From Candidatus Nomurabacteria bacterium RIFCSPLOWO2_01_FULL_42_17 (GTDB lineage Bacteria > Patescibacteriota > Minisyncoccia > Phycocordibacterales > UBA9973): DNA of 64,000 nucleotides. The notes beneath the pieces were generated by a model. The model worked only from the letters and a program-made list of their open reading frames with translations, ran no database searches and was not told the DNA's origin. The translations under genes and the position numbers were made by a program. Positions within the stretch are counted from its first letter, which is position 1, and each line of letters starts with the position of its first letter. The DNA is taken from assembly GCA_001785985.1 (NCBI GenBank), contig MFVE01000005.1, positions 16,556-80,555 on the forward strand. Reading direction: 5' to 3'. Positions 699 through 59,062 of the stretch are shown one piece after another.

Positions 699-3600
699 TT
701 ATTCTTTGCTTACGCCTTTTCTTAAATTCACATCAAGCGCTAGACCTCTTAAATAATTTAAGAGCACATTGAATGACGCGGGAGAATTCGGCGGTCTGAT
801 TTTTTCATTTTTAATAATAGAATCAAAAGTCGCGGATCTACCGAGAATGTCGTCAGATTTGATCGTGAGCATTTCACGCAGTGTGTACGCCGCGCCGTAA
901 CCTTCGAGCGCCCAGACTTCCATTTCTCCGAATCTCTGTCCTCCGCCTTGAGCTTTTCCGCCGAGAGGCTGTTGAGTAATGAGCGAATAAGGCCCGATAG
1001 AACGCATGTGAATTTTGTCTTCCACCATGTGGTGCAGTTTGAGCATATACATACAACCGACAGCCACATCTTGCTCGAAAGCTTCTCCGGTGCGTCCGTC
1101 AAAAAGTTTTAATTTTCCATTCTCTGGCAAACCTGCCTTTACTAACTCTTCCTTTATCTCCTCATGCTTGGCCCCGAGAAATGGCGGAACAATCGCCTGA
1201 TAATTGAGAGTGTTCGCGGCCATGCCGAGATGCATTTCTAAAATTTGTCCCAAGTTCATACGAGAAGGAACACCGAGAGGCGAAAGAATAATATCAATTG
1301 GTGTACCATCCGCCATATAAGGCATATCTTCCTCCGGCAGAATGGTGGAGATGACTCCCTTGTTTCCATGTCTTCCGGAAAGCTTGTCGCCCACGGAAAT
1401 ATTTCTGATCTGGGCAACTTCGATGACAATCTTTTTTATAATCCCCGCTTCGAGCGTGTGTCCGAGGTCACGAGAAAAGATCTTTACTCCAATGATGCGT
1501 CCGCGTTTGCCGTGTTCTACTCGCAGTGACGTATCTTTGACATCACGCGCTTTTTCCGCAAAGATCGAACGCAAAAGCCGTTCTTCTGGAGTCAGTTCCG
1601 TCTCGCCTTTGGGAGTAATCTTGCCGACTAAGATGTCATTTTCTCTCACTTCCGCTCCAATGCGGACAATTCCGTCTTCATCGAGATCTTTGAGCTTGAG
1701 TTCGCCGACATTTGGTATGTCACGAGTGGTGATTTCAGGGCCAAGTTTCGTATCACGAACCACGCAAGTAAATTCCTCGACGTAAACGGAAGTAAATTTA
1801 CTCTTTTTGACTAAACGTTCAGAGACGATGATCGCGTCCTCATAAGTTGAACCAGACCAAGAGAGAAAAGCCACCAGAATATTTTGTCCGAGAGAAATTT
1901 GTCCGCCGACGGTGCTACTCGTATCGGCCAATATATCGCCTTTTTTTATTTTATCCCCCACATTTACGAGCGGGCGCTGGTGGAATACGGCAAAGTTGTT
2001 ATTCCTCATAAAATTAATCAGATTATAAGTTTTGTCCCCGCCCGCATGACTCGCGTCAGCGTGTCGGGCAGGTTTTTTCTCCCCGCCTGCAACGCTATGC
2101 GTAGCATTGCGGGCAGGTGATTTGCCTTCTACCACTATCTTTTTCGCATCTAAGTAAGAGACAACCCCGTCTTCGGTTGCGATAACTAATCGCCCTCCGT
2201 CTCGCGCCGCCAACTCTTCAATACCGGTCGCAACCAGCGGAGCTTCCGGCAAAACGCAAGGTACAGCTTGCTTCTGCATGTTTGATCCCATTAAGGCTCG
2301 GTTCGCATTGTTGTGTTCCAAAAATGGAATCATCGAAGTGGCGATAGAGAAAGCTTGATTGGGAGAGACGTCAATAAAATCAACTTCCTCTCGAGAAATT
2401 TCTCCTGGTTCTGTCTTGATTCTGGCTTCAACTTTTTCTTTGGTTATCTTGCCGGACTCATCATAAGGAATTCCCGCATGCGCAATGTTATATTTTTCTT
2501 CCTCTAGCGCATTTAAATAAACCACCTCGTCAGTCAACTTGCCATTCTTGACTTTGATATAAGGAGTTTCGATAATTCCGAAGTCATTAATCTTGGCATA
2601 AGTGGCAAGGTGTAAAATAAGTCCGATGTTTGGACCTTCCGGAGTATGAATCGGGCAGACTCGGCCGTAGTGCGAAGGGTGCACATCGCGGACTTCCAGC
2701 CCCGCGCGTTCGCGTGTGAGACCTCCGGGTCCGAGCGCGGAGAGGGTGCGCAGATGCTCTATTTCATAAAGCACATTTTCTTGCGCCATAAATTGAGAAA
2801 GCTGGTTGGTAGTGAAAAATTCTTTGATGCGAGCTTGAAGTGGACGCTGATTGATGATCGCGATCGGCATCGCGGTATCGACATCAATAATAGACATGCG
2901 GTCTTGGATATTTCGCTTTATCTGCATCATACCAGTGCGAACTTTTTGCTGTAAAATTTCTCCGACAAAACGCACGCGCCTCTGGCCCAAGTGATCGATG
3001 TCGTCCGCCTTGGCGTCGGCTGTATTGTTCAAAGAAATAATGTGCGCAATAACTGTCGCTAAATCTTCCTTGGAAATTGTGCGGCGCGCCATCTCGGCTT
3101 CATCCATCCCCTTGCCGAAACGTTGGTTGAATCTGAATCTTCCGACTGGAGAAAGATCATATCGTTCAGCCGTAAATAATGAATTGATGAATTCTTTGGC
3201 ATTGTCCGCAGTGGCCATATCGCCGTCTCGGAGACGTTTGTAAATTTCAATATAGGCCTCATTTAAAGTCTTGATCCCGTCTTTGGAGAGAGTTGTTTTA
3301 ATAATTCCCTCTGCCGTAGCATCCCCGCCTGCATCGATTTGCGAAGCATTGCGGGCAGGCTTTGAAAAAGCCTTGACGATCGCCTCGTCGGTCTCATAAC
3401 CCATCGCGCGTAGTAGCGCGGTCGCCGGGAATTTTCTCTTTTTGTCTATTCTGATATAAATTCCTCCATCCGCTTCGGATTCTATCTCGATCCAAACTCC
3501 GCGAGCTGGGATGATCTTGGCGCCGAAATATCTGTTACCCTTGCTTTCAGATTCCGTAAAGAAAACTCCGAAACTGCGCGCGAGTTGCGGCACAATCACG

Positions 3601-4004
3601 CGTTCTACGCCGTTAATGATAAAAGTTCCGTGCGAAGTCATCAAAGGAAACTCAGACATAAAAATCTCTTGTTCTTTCACTGTGCCTAAAATTTTATTCG
3701 TCAATTTTACTCGCGCCTTCAGCAACCCTTGGTAAGAGAGCTTGTTGATTTTTGAATTATTTTCGTCCATCTTCGACTCACCGAGAGAAAAAGAAGTGAA
3801 TTCGAGTTGAAACTTTTTACCGGAATAATCATTGATAGGAGAAAATTCTTTGAAAACTTCGCCAATACCCTCTTCTATCAGCCACTTAAAAGATTTGATC
3901 TGCGCTTCGATCAAATTTGGAAATTCTACTAGCGGTTTTTTATACCTTGAAAAATACTTCTTCGGACGCTTGGTTATTGTATGCATATTGCTTGATCCAA
4001 ACAA
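699..4004 (-). CDS. rpoB: DNA-directed RNA polymerase subunit beta
   Basis: 1101-aa ORF with RpoB hallmarks throughout (…[37 protein letters not shown]…). Confidence 0.97.
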
Positions 4005-4157: not shown

Positions 4158-4835
4158 CTACTCTATTTCGTAATTTTTGTCAACTCTTTTCTTCCACTCT
4201 TCTATTTTTTTATGATTTCCAGAAAGTAGAACTTTTGGAACTTTGTAGTTTTTGTTTTTGTATTTCAAAACTTCCGGACGGGTATAGACTTCACTACTAG
4301 AGACTCTTTCTTCTTCTAATGATTCATATTTACCCAAAACTCCGGGAATCTGCCGAGAAATAGAATCAATCAAAACCATGGCTGGAAGTTCTCCACCAGT
4401 CAATACATAATCCCCTATCGAAATCTCTTCTGCGCGCAATATTTTTTGCACTCGAGCATCTATGCCTTCATATCTACCGGAAATCAGAATTATGTCCGTA
4501 TATTTCTTGGCAGAAGTTTTCGCGTATTTTGTCGTGAATTTTTTACCACTGGTTGAGAATATAATAGTTTTTAGCTTGTAGCTTGTAGCTTGTAGCTTTT
4601 TATAAATAGCTTGAACAGCTTTCAAAATAGGTTCAGCGCGCATAACCATTCCGGGCCCCCCGCCATAAGGCTTGTCGTCTACTGGCTTGTAATTATTTTT
4701 GGGTGCTTTTATAAAATCTCTAGGATTATAAAAAAGAATTTTAATCTTTTTATCCTTGATCGCCCGCCCAATAATAGATTCTCTTAAATAAGAATCAAAC
4801 ATCTCCGGAAAAATTGTGATTATATGAAAACGCAC
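4158..4835 (-). CDS. trmD: tRNA (guanine37-N1)-methyltransferase
   Basis: MRFHIITIFPEMFDSYL…YGGGPGMVM… is the TrmD SPOUT fold. It contains an in-frame AGCTTGT x3.5 repeat insert. Confidence 0.9.
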   Translation of the reverse strand: MRFHIITIFPEMFDSYLRESIIGRAIKDKKIKILFYNPRDFIKAPKNNYKPVDDKPYGGGPGMVMRAEPILKAVQAIYKKLQATSYKLKTIIFSTSGKKFTTKYAKTSAKKYTDIILISGRYEGIDARVQKILRAEEISIGDYVLTGGELPAMVLIDSISRQIPGVLGKYESLEEERVSSSEVYTRPEVLKYKNKNYKVPKVLLSGNHKKIEEWKKRVDKNYEIE

Positions 4836-26531: not shown

Positions 26532-28637
<2,106 letters not shown>

Positions 28638-30239: not shown

Positions 30240-30875
30240 TTAATTTACTTGAATTCTTCCTGATAGATATATTTTAATTTTAGCATTGGCTGATTTCGGC
30301 GAAGCAATACTGATTTGCACATAGGAAACAGCAGAAGAAAAAGAAGTGCTTGATTTTATTTCTGCGCTCGAGCTGGGTCTAGAAAAAGAAATAGTTAGAT
30401 CGTCTAAGGACTCAGAACCGCCGGATTGATAAAAAACATCTAAACTGGAAATGTAATTCCCCCTGGTAATAGTAATCGGATCTATGCATTCCCCTGTGCA
30501 GTCCGAGCCATCAAACAAGCCATCTTCGTTGAGATCAGAAAAATAAATAAAACTTTCATCATCAGCTGCTTTATCTATGTGGACTCCATAGGCAGGTTTC
30601 CAGGTTGAATCTATCTGCAACTGCTGGGTCAAGGGCGGCAATTTGCCGGACAAAGATGACTTTTGCGCTTCCACAATCTTCAAAGCAATATCGCTGGCTA
30701 AATTTTTGATATCGACTTTCGCTTGAAATTCCCCGTAATTAAAAATGACAATAGAGGCCATGACAGAAAAAATACTCAACACAACAATGAGCTCTACATA
30801 GGTCATTCCTCTATTCAGCTTATTAGCTTGTAGCTTGTAGCTTGTAGTATTTGGTATTTTAAAATTAAAAATCAT
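30240..30875 (-). CDS. Type IV pilin-like protein with prepilin leader
   Basis: …NRG|MTYVELIVVLSIFSVMASIV. The leader contains the in-frame TSYKLQA repeat insert. Confidence 0.6.
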   Translation of the reverse strand: MIFNFKIPNTTSYKLQANKLNRGMTYVELIVVLSIFSVMASIVIFNYGEFQAKVDIKNLASDIALKIVEAQKSSLSGKLPPLTQQLQIDSTWKPAYGVHIDKAADDESFIYFSDLNEDGLFDGSDCTGECIDPITITRGNYISSLDVFYQSGGSESLDDLTISFSRPSSSAEIKSSTSFSSAVSYVQISIASPKSANAKIKIYLSGRIQVN

Positions 30876-44676: not shown

Positions 44677-47223
44677 TTAAATTTCTGGAGCGGGTTCTGT
44701 GGATTCAGAGTCCTCAACTACATCAGCCTCTGGTGCAGATGCTTCTTCCGATTCGGGTTCAGGTTCGGGAGTTACTTCAGGAGTAGATTCAGATTCCTCC
44801 GTCTCAGACGGAGGCGTTACCTCTGCATCAGAAACTTCAGAAGTTTCATCAGCCGGCTCGTCCACCGTCTCTTCCGCTACAGGCATTTCTTCATTGCTTT
44901 CTTGCTCAGAAGCCTGCCCTGTACCAGAGCTCTGCTCTTGGTTCGGGGAATTTCCATCATTTCCTAACATAGCATCCAGCTGACTTCTAGTATAGCAAGA
45001 AGTGCCGTTTGCATCTTTCAAACAAACTTCATCTAGAGTGGCCTTTTCTGCAAAGATATTTGTAATCCCATTCCCCACATCCCCCATCCAAGCAGTGAGT
45101 TTGGCATAGACATTGTCAAAGAAAGCAGTGACGAAAGATTGGTTAGATGAGCCTTCGAGCGGAGTGATGGTGCCAGAGATGGCGTTTAGGTTTAGATTGA
45201 GTTCATCTAGTTTGGTATTCGTCGCTTGGAGACCTAGCACCATATAGCCCAGAGTGTTCACAGGGTTCACGATGGTGCCTTTGTAGTGCATGGCCCAGGG
45301 TGCTTCATCTGCCATGACACCGACATATTCTGTGATGGTGTCTCCGGTTCCCATGCCTGGTTTGTAATGGAATTTATATATTTTGGTATTGAGGATTTGA
45401 GTGAGAGCTTCATTTGGATCATCTACTGTGCTAATGACGTCCTTTAATTCACGGGAAGAGGCAGCCGATGCCCAGGAAGTGATGCCGTCTCCTCCTGCAT
45501 CGGTGAGCTGTTGACCAGCAGAGCCTACTGCAGTGGGTAAGGTTAGAGTCCAGGTGCCAGCCGCTGCGGCTGTCTGCATTGTGACTACTCCAGATGTTCC
45601 TCCTGCTAAAGACATAGTACCTGCTCTGGAACCTGCTGTACCTAATGTAAGTAATGCGACCGGAGAATTATTTCCAATTCCGATTACTGCGTCTGTGTCT
45701 ACAGTGGTGCCAGTGGCATTTACGTTTAGGCCAAAAATTGTGTTGCCGATGACGAGCTGGTTGGAAGTTGTAGCCGAGGGAGCGTCAACATCATAACCTA
45801 TGATGAGATTATTAGAACCAGAAGTAATGGCATCACCTGCTCCTAAACCAATCGCAATATTATTATCCCCCGTCGTCACTGCCGTCAGAGCGTTGTATCC
45901 AAAAGCAGAGTTGTCATCTCCGCCGTTTGAGGTGTCAAGAGCGAGAGAACCGAAAGCGGAGTTGCGGGTGCCGGTTGTTTCTGTTGTCAGAACATTATAA
46001 CCAAAAGCAGAGTTATTGTCGGCGGTGGTATTAGCGTCAAGCGCCAAAGCTCCAAAAGCTGCATTTTGAGTGCCGGTTGTGTTGACACCCAAAACGTTAT
46101 AGCCAAAAGCGCTGTTGTTGTTGGCTGTAGTATTGGCACTAAGCGCAAAAGCTCCAACAGCTGTATTTTGAGTGCCAGTGGTGTTAGCATTAAGCGTAAA
46201 TGATCCGAAGGCTGAATTATTGTTGGCGGTGGTATTAGCACTAAGCGCTAAGGATCCAAATGCGGAATTTCTAATTCCAGTAGTATTAGCGCCCAAAACA
46301 TCGGGGCCAAAAGCTGCATTTTGAGTGCCAGTGGTGTTAGCGGTTAAAACATTATACCCAAAGGCAGAGTTTAAACTACCAGTGGTGTTGGCATCAAGTG
46401 CGAAAGATCCAAAGGCCGAGTTTGAACCACCGGTGGTGTTGGATATTAAAGCGTTATACCCGATCGCCACATTATCATCTCCCGTAGTGATAGCTGTGCC
46501 TGCATCAGCACCAACCGCCGTATTTCTTAATCCACTTGCAGCTGTAAGAGAATCAAGTGCGGTGCTTCCAAGAGCAGTGTTGCCATCGCCTGCAGAAGTT
46601 TGAGTAAAACCTGTAAGTGTTGCTCCATTCGGGATGGTGAGAGTTCCAGTGCTGGAGGTGATGGTGAGGCCGTTGATACTTGTAGCTGTGGCAACTCCAA
46701 GAACTGGAGTGACCAATGTCGGAGAAGTAGCTAAAACCAAAACCGTGCCACTGCCTGTGGTCGTCATTTCTCCGAGAACGCCAGCGTTGTTGTAGAGAAC
46801 TCTGCCGGATGTACCGCTGGTAATGGAAGTGGTGCCTACTGTGAGTCCGGTACTTAACGTCGCCCAAGTGAGTACTCCACTCCCATCCGTCTGCAGGTAT
46901 TGGCTAGCAGTACCGTCATCTGTGGGAAGAGTTAGAGTATATGTGCCAGCGATAGCAGCTGGTTGAATGATGATTTCACCAGAGGTACTGCCAGTGAGAG
47001 TGAGAAAATCTGTGGTGACTTCTGCTGCCATAGACTTGGCAAGACTTTGGACGTTGCTGTCGATTGAATTTAATGTTCCATTGAGTTGAGCGTCGAAGAA
47101 AGCTCGGGTGACGAATTGAGAGGGGTTTAGATTATCTGCCCCCCCCCCTCGGTCCTGCTGGACCTTGAATTCCCTGAGGGCCCATTGGTCCCTGGGGTCC
47201 TTGAGGTCCAGCGACGTAAACAA
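44677..47223 (-). CDS. Phage-tail-fibre-like surface protein with Gly/Asn-rich NTTGxxNxAFG repeats and C-terminal intramolecular-chaperone (Peptidase_S74/endosialidase chaperone) domain plus acidic tail. Probably the 3' part of a gene fused to 47132-47443 via a G10 tract.
   Basis: More than 12 tandem repeats (…NTTGTQNAAFG…). Ser-Lys dyad motif SSRELKDVIS…DDPNEALTQILNTKIYKFHYK typical of auto-cleaving tail-spike/fibre chaperone domains. The annotated Met start is probably not real. Confidence 0.75.
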   Translation of the reverse strand: MFTSLDLKDPRDQWALREFKVQQDRGGGADNLNPSQFVTRAFFDAQLNGTLNSIDSNVQSLAKSMAAEVTTDFLTLTGSTSGEIIIQPAAIAGTYTLTLPTDDGTASQYLQTDGSGVLTWATLSTGLTVGTTSITSGTSGRVLYNNAGVLGEMTTTGSGTVLVLATSPTLVTPVLGVATATSINGLTITSSTGTLTIPNGATLTGFTQTSAGDGNTALGSTALDSLTAASGLRNTAVGADAGTAITTGDDNVAIGYNALISNTTGGSNSAFGSFALDANTTGSLNSAFGYNVLTANTTGTQNAAFGPDVLGANTTGIRNSAFGSLALSANTTANNNSAFGSFTLNANTTGTQNTAVGAFALSANTTANNNSAFGYNVLGVNTTGTQNAAFGALALDANTTADNNSAFGYNVLTTETTGTRNSAFGSLALDTSNGGDDNSAFGYNALTAVTTGDNNIAIGLGAGDAITSGSNNLIIGYDVDAPSATTSNQLVIGNTIFGLNVNATGTTVDTDAVIGIGNNSPVALLTLGTAGSRAGTMSLAGGTSGVVTMQTAAAAGTWTLTLPTAVGSAGQQLTDAGGDGITSWASAASSRELKDVISTVDDPNEALTQILNTKIYKFHYKPGMGTGDTITEYVGVMADEAPWAMHYKGTIVNPVNTLGYMVLGLQATNTKLDELNLNLNAISGTITPLEGSSNQSFVTAFFDNVYAKLTAWMGDVGNGITNIFAEKATLDEVCLKDANGTSCYTRSQLDAMLGNDGNSPNQEQSSGTGQASEQESNEEMPVAEETVDEPADETSEVSDAEVTPPSETEESESTPEVTPEPEPESEEASAPEADVVEDSESTEPAPEI

Positions 47224-53056: not shown

Positions 53057-53121
53057 TCCATAAAAAAATTGATTATCTGATAACAGCATTTATTATACCA
53101 ACTGATAGTAAATAGCGCTAG

Positions 53122-53208
53122 CGGATGAGGTGAGATTCGAACTCACGGTCCTTTTTAGGGGACGGCGGTTTAGTAAACCGCTACCTTAAGCCACTCGGTC
53201 ACTCATCC
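53122..53208 (-). tRNA. Class II tRNA (Ser-like: long variable arm, discriminator G) with apparent anticodon ACU (loop UUACUAA)
   Basis: Reverse complement folds with acceptor GGAUGAG/CUCAUCC, D-stem ACC/GGU, anticodon stem GCGGU/ACCGC, variable arm GUCC…GGAC and T-arm GUGAG-UUCGAAU-CUCAC. The A34 anticodon is unusual, so the assignment is tentative. Confidence 0.55.
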
Positions 53209-53298: not shown

Positions 53299-53387
53299 GG
53301 AGCCGTGTTGGAGTGGTCTATCAAGCATCTTTGCTAAAGATGTAGGGGCTTTAAAACCCCTCGAGGGTTCGAATCCCTCCGGCTCCG
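53299..53387 (+). tRNA. tRNA-Ser (anticodon GCU)
   Basis: Acceptor GGAGCCG/CGGCUCC, anticodon stem CAUCU/AGAUG, loop UUGCUAA, long variable arm, T-arm GAGGG-UUCGAAU-CCCUC and discriminator G. Confidence 0.85.
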
Positions 53388-53392
53388 CCTTT

Positions 53393-55965: not shown

Positions 55966-56090
55966 AAAGCCGCCTGCCCGCAATGCTAAAGCATAGCTTT
56001 TGCAGGCGGGGGAATTCCATTTTGAATGATGTTATCACTTTGAGACAGCCGTCAATTTTGATAACATTAATATTTGTTAATAACAGGTGC
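55948..56090. repeat. Direct repeat 1 (GAATTCCACTTTGA-hairpin CCGCCTGC…GCAGGCGG-GAATTCCATTTTGA), doubling as a terminator between recG and the Pif1-like gene
   Basis: About 72 bp at roughly 93% identity to 58927-58998, with weaker similarity for another 60 bp. 8-bp GC stem followed by T-run on the minus strand. Confidence 0.7.
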
Positions 56091-58926: not shown

Positions 58927-59062
58927 GAATTCCACTTTGAATAAAAGCTGCCTGCCCGCAATGCTAAAGCATAGCTTTTGCAGGCGGGGAGAATTTCATT
59001 TTGAGTAATTGTAATGTTTTTACTACACTGACGGCCGTTAGTTTGGTAAACATTAATAATTA
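58927..59062. repeat. Direct repeat 2 (same element as 55948-56090), downstream of the GNAT gene
   Basis: See 55948-56090. Confidence 0.7.

Follow-up and report, generated by a model that had tools for sequence, protein, structure and literature searches.

Heptanucleotide AGCTTGT repeats within housekeeping genes of a Nomurabacteria genome and related arrays across the Candidate Phyla Radiation

In most prokaryotic genomes, no long simple repeat is as abundant as heptamers, according to the summaries of Mrazek 2007 given in PMC4679880 and PMC4692102. In the same summaries, the reason proposed for this excess is that 7 nucleotides match the segment of DNA held by the polymerase, and coding regions are said to favour units of 3n bases. 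Several heptamer families have been described that are specific to one genome or lineage, such as GGGAATC in Xanthomonas, GGGGAYT in Nostoc, a family in Calothrix, and TAACTGA in Beggiatoaceae, and these include inverted pairs and a few sets that lie inside open reading frames (ORFs) (PMC4679880, PMC4692102). A full-text search of the literature found no paper on the AGCTTGT repeat sequence, on the peptide it encodes, or on heptamer repeats in Patescibacteria.

Here we analyse tandem AGCTTGT repeats in a 64,000-nt stretch of DNA (the window; all coordinates are positions within it) from Candidatus Nomurabacteria bacterium RIFCSPLOWO2_01_FULL_42_17, a member of the Candidate Phyla Radiation (CPR, or Patescibacteria). 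The AGCTTGT family belongs to the known class of heptamer repeats, and is set apart by its unit, its lineage, its mainly coding location in housekeeping genes and its short arrays of stable length. With the prokaryotic heptanucleotide LSSR, as far as that class is portrayed in the summaries cited above, the arrays share head-to-tail 7-base units, a dominance of period 7 and a scattered phylogeny; LSSR are attributed there to polymerase slippage. The traits of an LSSR are found here, namely at least three head-to-tail units, an abundance beyond chance, no conserved flanks and units that, judging from orthologues, evolve in concert. However, AGCTTGT and other CPR arrays differ from this picture of LSSR in being mostly intragenic, including in essential genes, and short (median 30 nt).

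TAACTGA, which is found in Beggiatoaceae, cyanobacteria and Bacteroidetes (PMC4679880), is one heptamer at many loci of a genome and, like AGCTTGT, is shared across distant phyla. It follows the same stop-codon logic as AGCTTGT, reading LITDN-stop on one strand and the 7-residue cycle LSVISYQ on the other (MacGregor 2015, PMC4679880), and it too has a few stop-free sets inside ORFs and an inverted pair. In contrast to the AGCTTGT arrays, only 25 of the 169 TAACTGA sets are not fully intergenic, and most sets lie just upstream of start codons. The GGGAATC repeats of Xanthomonas, the GGGGAYT repeats of Nostoc and the cyanobacterial STRR (PMC4692102) are similarly bound to a genome or lineage, but are G-rich, quadruplex-capable and intergenic, whereas AGCTTGT lacks G-runs and forms weak 4-bp mini-hairpins of -3 to -4 kcal/mol. 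The AGCTTGT arrays thus do not share the mostly intergenic placement upstream of starts that marks families of the TAACTGA, GGGAATC and STRR type.

Tandem AGCTTGT arrays in the window

The window arrays were called with Tandem Repeats Finder (TRF) and by direct reading of the sequence. A preliminary description of this DNA had reported tandem AGCTTGT units in trmD, in ligA, in the leader of a pilin-like gene and in an intergenic palindromic cluster, and all four sites were verified in the sequence and by TRF. The trmD array (4572-4598, minus strand; period 7, 3.9 perfect units) lies in a host gene at 4158-4835 on the minus strand, whose deposited protein, OGI95327.1, starts at Met12 of the ORF. 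The array in ligA (26751-26784, minus strand; period 7, 4.9 units, 85% identity) is within the gene for the NAD-dependent DNA ligase OGI95345.1 (26532-28613, minus strand). The third coding array (30824-30847, minus strand; period 7, 3.4 perfect units) is in the leader of a pseudopilin with a GspH-type annotation (OGI95349.1; 30240-30875, minus strand). AGCTTGT-type arrays are thus present at four loci in 64 kb, and three of the four are coding and in conserved housekeeping genes.

The 11-mer AGCTTGTAGCT occurs 8 times in the window against 0.02 expected, a count reached in none of 100 shuffles, and no other 11-mer of the window is as over-represented. Lone AGCTTGT heptamers outside arrays are scarce in the window, with 4 on the plus strand and 1 on the minus strand. 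Comparison of the flanks of the three coding arrays revealed nothing shared, and no inverted partner was found within 150 nt of any of them. Nor did the coding arrays have terminal inverted repeats, target duplications or conserved sequence beyond the units themselves.

The fourth locus is an inverted pair between genes. Its left arm (32882-32899, plus strand) reads TAGCTGG TAGCTTG TAG, and its right arm (32915-32938, minus strand), which reads CTACAAG CTAATTAG CTACAAG CT, begins one base past the stop codon of a T2SSF/PilC-like gene. On the minus strand, the RNA of this pair is predicted to form a hairpin of -23.3 kcal/mol (z -2.4). We considered whether the pair is an intrinsic terminator; it is not a canonical one, as it has no T-run and the terminator scan was negative. 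In other CPR loci, heptamer arrays with other units also form close inverted pairs (L087 671-749; L050 5617-5738; L196 4657-4738; L025 7668-7737; L113 4729-4816).

Several unrelated features are also present in the window. A GC-rich, partly palindromic element of ~40 nt, CCCCGCCTGC..GCTATGC..GCATTGCGGGCAGG, has four copies, two of them in frame in rpoB (2081-2120 and 3323-3362; gene at 699-4004, minus strand) and two intergenic (55973-56001 and 58951-58979). It resembles palindromic inserts of the Rickettsia type, and is probably the other in-frame repeat family of the preliminary description. The 11-mer TCCCGTTAGAA occurs five times, counting either strand (37449, 37522, 40400, 52953 and 53046), and tandem repeats of 51 and 102 nt with 70-80% identity at 45991-46290 probably mark a repetitive coding region. 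At 53121-53208, ARAGORN calls a tRNA-Ser with the unusual anticodon ACT, which adjoins a divergent tRNA-Ser(GCT) at 53299-53389.

Reading frame, orientation and codon usage

Because a period of 7 is coprime with 3, three units (21 nt) traverse all codon phases, and a heptamer array encodes a single 7-residue cycle whichever frame it is read in. (ACAAGCT)n reads as the TSYKLQA cycle in each of its three frames, and (AGCTTGT)n runs into TAG every 7 codons in each of its own. The preliminary description had noted that the three coding copies lie in the same frame and orientation relative to their host genes, and had taken this to suggest selection against frame disruption or a protein-level role for the SYKL peptide. 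The common frame turns out to be automatic and uninformative: the codon phases of successive units cycle (0,1,2,0 in trmD; 2,0,1,2,0 in ligA; 2,0,1 in the pseudopilin gene), and the three arrays start in differing phases. The common orientation is indeed observed, but it has no special meaning, since the opposite strand stops in every frame and an intact gene therefore tolerates three or more units in one orientation only.

Selection against frame disruption is real only in the trivial sense given by this stop arithmetic. In a public-genome sample of (AGCTTGT)n arrays with at least three units, the matches listed include 49 within ORFs of 150 aa or more, and all 49 have the stop-free orientation. 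The intergenic copies of the window (32882-32938) are in both orientations.

The codons of the arrays are rare in the window, where CTA makes up 10% of Leu codons, AAG 27% of Lys, TAC 24% of Tyr and AGC 15% of Ser codons. Given the encoded peptide and the codon usage of the window, the probability of obtaining the periodic DNA is 1e-6 for trmD, 4e-5 for the pseudopilin gene and 7e-8 for ligA. These rare codons, together with the intergenic copies in both orientations, identify the repeat as a feature of the DNA and the peptide as its by-product. The arrays thus originate at the DNA level, and TSYKLQA is what results when a 7-base period is read in triplets, not a designed protein motif.

The idea that SYKL or TSYKLQA is a selected peptide motif that serves its carrier proteins draws on the recurrence of a TSYKLQA-type peptide in three proteins of the window and in many other CPR proteins, but this recurrence is forced by the frame arithmetic. 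The codon evidence contradicts such a motif, as the codons are not only rare but identical from unit to unit. Furthermore, the peptide occurs in unrelated proteins and at unrelated sites, one of them a leader that is removed; copies also occur between genes in both orientations; and the encoded residues shift with unit-wide base changes, as in the KLQTINYKL of one ligA (L211). With unrelated heptamer peptides also present at the same TrmD loop (see below), the suggested protein-level role for SYKL is left unsupported, and we regard a selected peptide as extremely improbable.

The host sites in trmD, ligA and the pseudopilin leader

On the sense strand, the trmD array consists of AAGCTAC three times followed by AAGCTAA and encodes KLQATSYKL, within an ORF that reads KKLQATSYKLKT. 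By alignment, the counterpart of the array in the solved TrmD chain 4mcb_A is the variable stretch TAKAAAGEGAK, past the conserved GGGPGM motif. With a mean pLDDT of 50, the AlphaFold model of TrmD was too poor to use, and the placement in a loop comes from alignment to solved structures. In TrmD homologues, this position varies in length and sequence, and some have long unrelated inserts. In relatives whose proteins are 85-90% identical, an array of equal length occupies the same codons, but it is built of the units AAGCTAA, AAGCTAA, AAGCTAT and AAGCTAA, and a more distant relative has (ATTACGA)-type units at this position, which encode ITNYKLRITN. Among distant orthologues, at least 21 nt of period-7 sequence are found in the loop in 13 of 56 (L140, L141, L149, L150, L151, L155, L158, L163, L164, L178, L182, L185 and L196), with about 11 differing units that include AAAAGTY, AAATCCA, AAAAGCG, ATCGCAA, ACAAGAA and CAAAATT. 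The TrmD loop is thus a recurrent hot spot for period-7 arrays.

The ligA array is imperfect, with the sense-strand units AAGCTAC, AAGCTAA, AAGCTAC, TAGCTAC and AAGCTAA. It makes up the stretch that links the HhH domain to the BRCT domain. In the DNA ligase of PDB entry 1dgs, the aligned sequence is ESKE--EVSDLLSG, only 2 residues shorter. The closest LigA relatives (74-81% identity) have EKMEKKKAGKLTG at the linker, and LigA of other lineages has xYKLQATSYKLxG, in forms that range from perfect to decayed. In seven ligA genes, the array has the same codon register and equal length and is built of lineage-specific units: AAGCTAC in the window, in Saccharibacteria (L093), in Doudnabacteria (L108) and in L208, AAGCTAT/G in L209, and AAGCTAA/T in L210. 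In the seventh, L211, all four units read AAACTxx, that is, one G-to-A change is repeated throughout the array, where it falls at differing codon positions and alters differing amino acids. This amounts to concerted evolution of the units. The Saccharibacteria and Doudnabacteria genes were found by a search with a perfect 21-mer, and their mutual identity is thus partly a matter of ascertainment; L208 to L211 were found through protein similarity.

Another site in LigA also holds repeats. At 27848-27886, a 19-nt GC-rich palindromic tandem, ATTTGGGAGCTCGGCTCCC in 2.1 copies, lies in the ligA coding sequence of the window, and at the matching place the Doudnabacteria ligA (L108) has a second heptamer array, which encodes QLQATSYKLPA. 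Two types of repeat thus share one permissive site.

The start of the pseudopilin gene overlaps the stop of an A24 prepilin peptidase gene (30872-31675), in a cluster of the type IV pilus/T2SS-like kind. Its array encodes TSYKLQA upstream of the cleavage/methylation motif G|MTYVE, in an ORF that reads NTTSYKLQANKL, and the N_methyl motif spans residues 19-43. The leader is 23 aa long, compared to 12-16 aa in most of about 120 homologues. Other long prepilin leaders contain heptamer-type peptides, such as KLKAKSHKL, KLKDKSYKL and GNWKLKIG. Some prepilin leaders (P0268, P0276, P0319, P0260, P0285, P0294 and others) contain HPEYSRG, RQAG or SAQAG, which are apparently encoded by a GC-rich repeat element and not by heptamers.

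The location of this last array raises the question of phase variation, in which gain or loss of one 7-base unit would shift the frame and toggle a component of the pilus, making the pseudopilin array a contingency locus. In favour of this, 7 is not divisible by 3, the gene is one for a surface structure and has the array at its 5' end, and arrays recur in the prepilin leaders of relatives and of other CPR lineages. However, the same repeat is found in the essential trmD and ligA, where being switched off would be lethal, and of the hosts only the pseudopilin could conceivably be subject to such switching. Even there we think it quite improbable, as the array is no longer than 3.4 units, three contigs encode an identical protein, and no out-of-frame or length variants are on record.

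Each of the three coding arrays is thus at a permissive site with weak constraint on sequence, namely a surface loop in TrmD, the linker that joins HhH and BRCT in LigA, and the leader that is cleaved from the pseudopilin. The arrays take up loop sequence of about native length and add no fixed block. Variation in unit number was not found; the TrmD, LigA and pseudopilin proteins are each identical on three independent contigs, and protein clusters at 90% contain no length variants. In both ligA and trmD, the orthologous arrays have kept their length and codon register while their units changed in concert, which goes beyond the textbook picture of such repeats.

Distribution in other genomes and the maintenance of the arrays

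In species-representative genomes, more than 120 stretches of (AGCTTGT)x3 were found among the matches listed, where by our own estimate about 0.3 would be expected by chance. They occur in Pseudomonas, Alcanivorax, Vibrio, Bacteroidota, Planctomycetota, Bacillota, a Woesearchaeote and many CPR groups. Among the matches listed, the CPR arrays are in ORFs of at least 150 aa in 30 of 36 cases, with a median length of 26 nt and a maximum of 33, and their hosts again include a LigA linker as well as prepilin leaders (L003 twice, L026). For Gammaproteobacteria, the matches listed include 58 (AGCTTGT)n arrays, of which only 13 are in ORFs of this size, and lengths reach 130 nt. Arrays of up to 130 nt are seen in Alcanivorax/Alloalcanivorax (L012, L038, L044, L054, L061 and L084), and Alcanivorax sp. 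S6407 alone has (AGCTTGT)n at no fewer than 8 loci.

To put period 7 in context, we used 352 kb of loci that had been chosen only for encoding TrmD. This sample contains 36 period-7 arrays, a density of ~10 per 100 kb, compared to 3-12 arrays for periods 5, 6, 8 and 9 and to 1 period-7 array after shuffling. Of these arrays, 23 are inside ORFs of at least 120 aa, and the median length is 30 nt with a maximum of 58. Where the unit has stops on both strands, 6 of 7 arrays lie outside ORFs, and the exception is an imperfect array. CPR loci often have several arrays of differing units and occasionally intergenic inverted pairs. In CPR genomes, period 7 thus exceeds every other short period and is mostly intragenic, which is again beyond the textbook picture.

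In viral contigs, we counted 16 loci with (AGCTTGT)x3, 8 and 2 for two scrambles of the same composition, and 107 for TAACTGA. We therefore rejected the idea that AGCTTGT is a special unit across phyla, since scrambled units also form arrays in viral contigs; AGCTTGT is mildly favoured but not unique. The mini-hairpins of the type AGCT-TGT-AGCT were likewise rejected as a general driver of slippage, as their predicted stability is low (-3.3 to -4.1 kcal/mol, z -0.4 to -2.1) and other CPR units, such as AAAATCC, show no fold.

The arrays are probably best explained as heptanucleotide simple-sequence repeats of an AAGCTAN family that originate and are homogenised at the DNA level and are kept in genes by a stop-free strand, by the frame and by a permissive site. 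We infer that replication slippage or short-patch conversion would generate the arrays and make their units uniform. A filter of selection would then let an array persist only with the stop-free orientation (ACAAGCT as the sense strand), a net length that keeps the frame, and a structurally permissive location, and the encoded peptides would be neutral at the protein level. There is, however, a tension in this account. Slippage by one unit would frameshift trmD or ligA and be lethal, so that simple slippage poorly explains a concerted change of units at constant length. The LigA linker, where Nomurabacteria, Saccharibacteria and Doudnabacteria have one unit in a common codon register (in part an effect of ascertainment), also counts against slippage, and dispersed arrays within a genome tend towards a common unit variant, which is not expected from purely local slippage. 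Homogenisation at constant length could come about by mismatch correction of transiently slipped duplexes, or by conversion between arrays.

The same observations could instead mean that the arrays are functional DNA or RNA signals, such as sites for a heptamer-reading protein, for uptake or recombination, or paired hairpins, with selection on the nucleotides keeping the periodicity and coding DNA merely tolerating it. The concerted change of units with frozen length and register in essential genes would fit such signals, as would the occurrence of one unit at the LigA linker and in prepilin leaders of distant CPR lineages, the unit variant shared among dispersed arrays of one genome, and the inverted intergenic pairs that recur in the window and at other CPR loci. 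However, the units of the TrmD loop differ freely between lineages, many differing units are present within single genomes, and decayed arrays are seen in many orthologues. AGCTTGT is also found in Pseudomonas, Alcanivorax, Bacteroidota and viral contigs, where scrambled units form arrays too, and the hairpin of the window lacks the T-run of a terminator. We also compared the arrays to DUS/USS, the lineage-specific, non-tandem 9-12-mers, and rejected this identification: AGCTTGT is enriched as they are, but it is tandem, its unit differs between close relatives, and it occurs in many phyla. On balance, we consider functional signals rather unlikely. It is a touch less likely still that a dedicated process, or nucleotide-level selection on a signal for protein binding, uptake or recombination, keeps the heptamer arrays of Patescibacteria as a whole periodic.

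Insertion of a small mobile element in frame, of which the arrays would be footprints or cargo, would parallel the Rickettsia palindromic elements (RPEs), which Ogata et al. reportedly described in 2000 as in-frame selfish DNA within genes, roughly 100-150 bp long and of conserved sequence. In both cases, genes for essential proteins accommodate repetitive DNA in frame at sites that permit it. One sequence at several dispersed loci and in several phyla would be expected of such an element, and the window also contains a genuinely palindromic, GC-rich element of roughly 40 nt in frame in rpoB. In contrast to RPEs, which are palindromic, the AGCTTGT arrays are simple tandem repeats with a variable number of units and no conserved body or ends, and they show no terminal inverted repeats or target duplications. 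They replace loop sequence of similar length without adding a fixed block, and both the count and the sequence of their units vary continuously. A mobile origin is thus largely refuted, and we consider it very improbable.

For simple-sequence repeats that are formed at the DNA level and filtered in genes, these findings have several consequences. In annotation, peptides such as TSYKLQA, TNYELRI and KSQIANR in CPR proteins are to be read as by-products of repeats and not as motifs or functional insertions. A density of ~10 heptamer arrays per 100 kb, mainly intragenic and in tiny, gene-dense genomes, runs counter to the usual rule that coding DNA tolerates units of 3n bases only. If a dedicated process or nucleotide-level selection does act on the arrays, it would explain how length and register can stay fixed in the ligA linker and the trmD loop across phylum-level divergence while the units change together. 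The ligA and trmD arrays provide a clean natural example of units that evolve in concert under a strict constraint against frameshifts, and they could help to test the long-standing but unproven idea that 7 bases are a preferred slippage length of bacterial replication.
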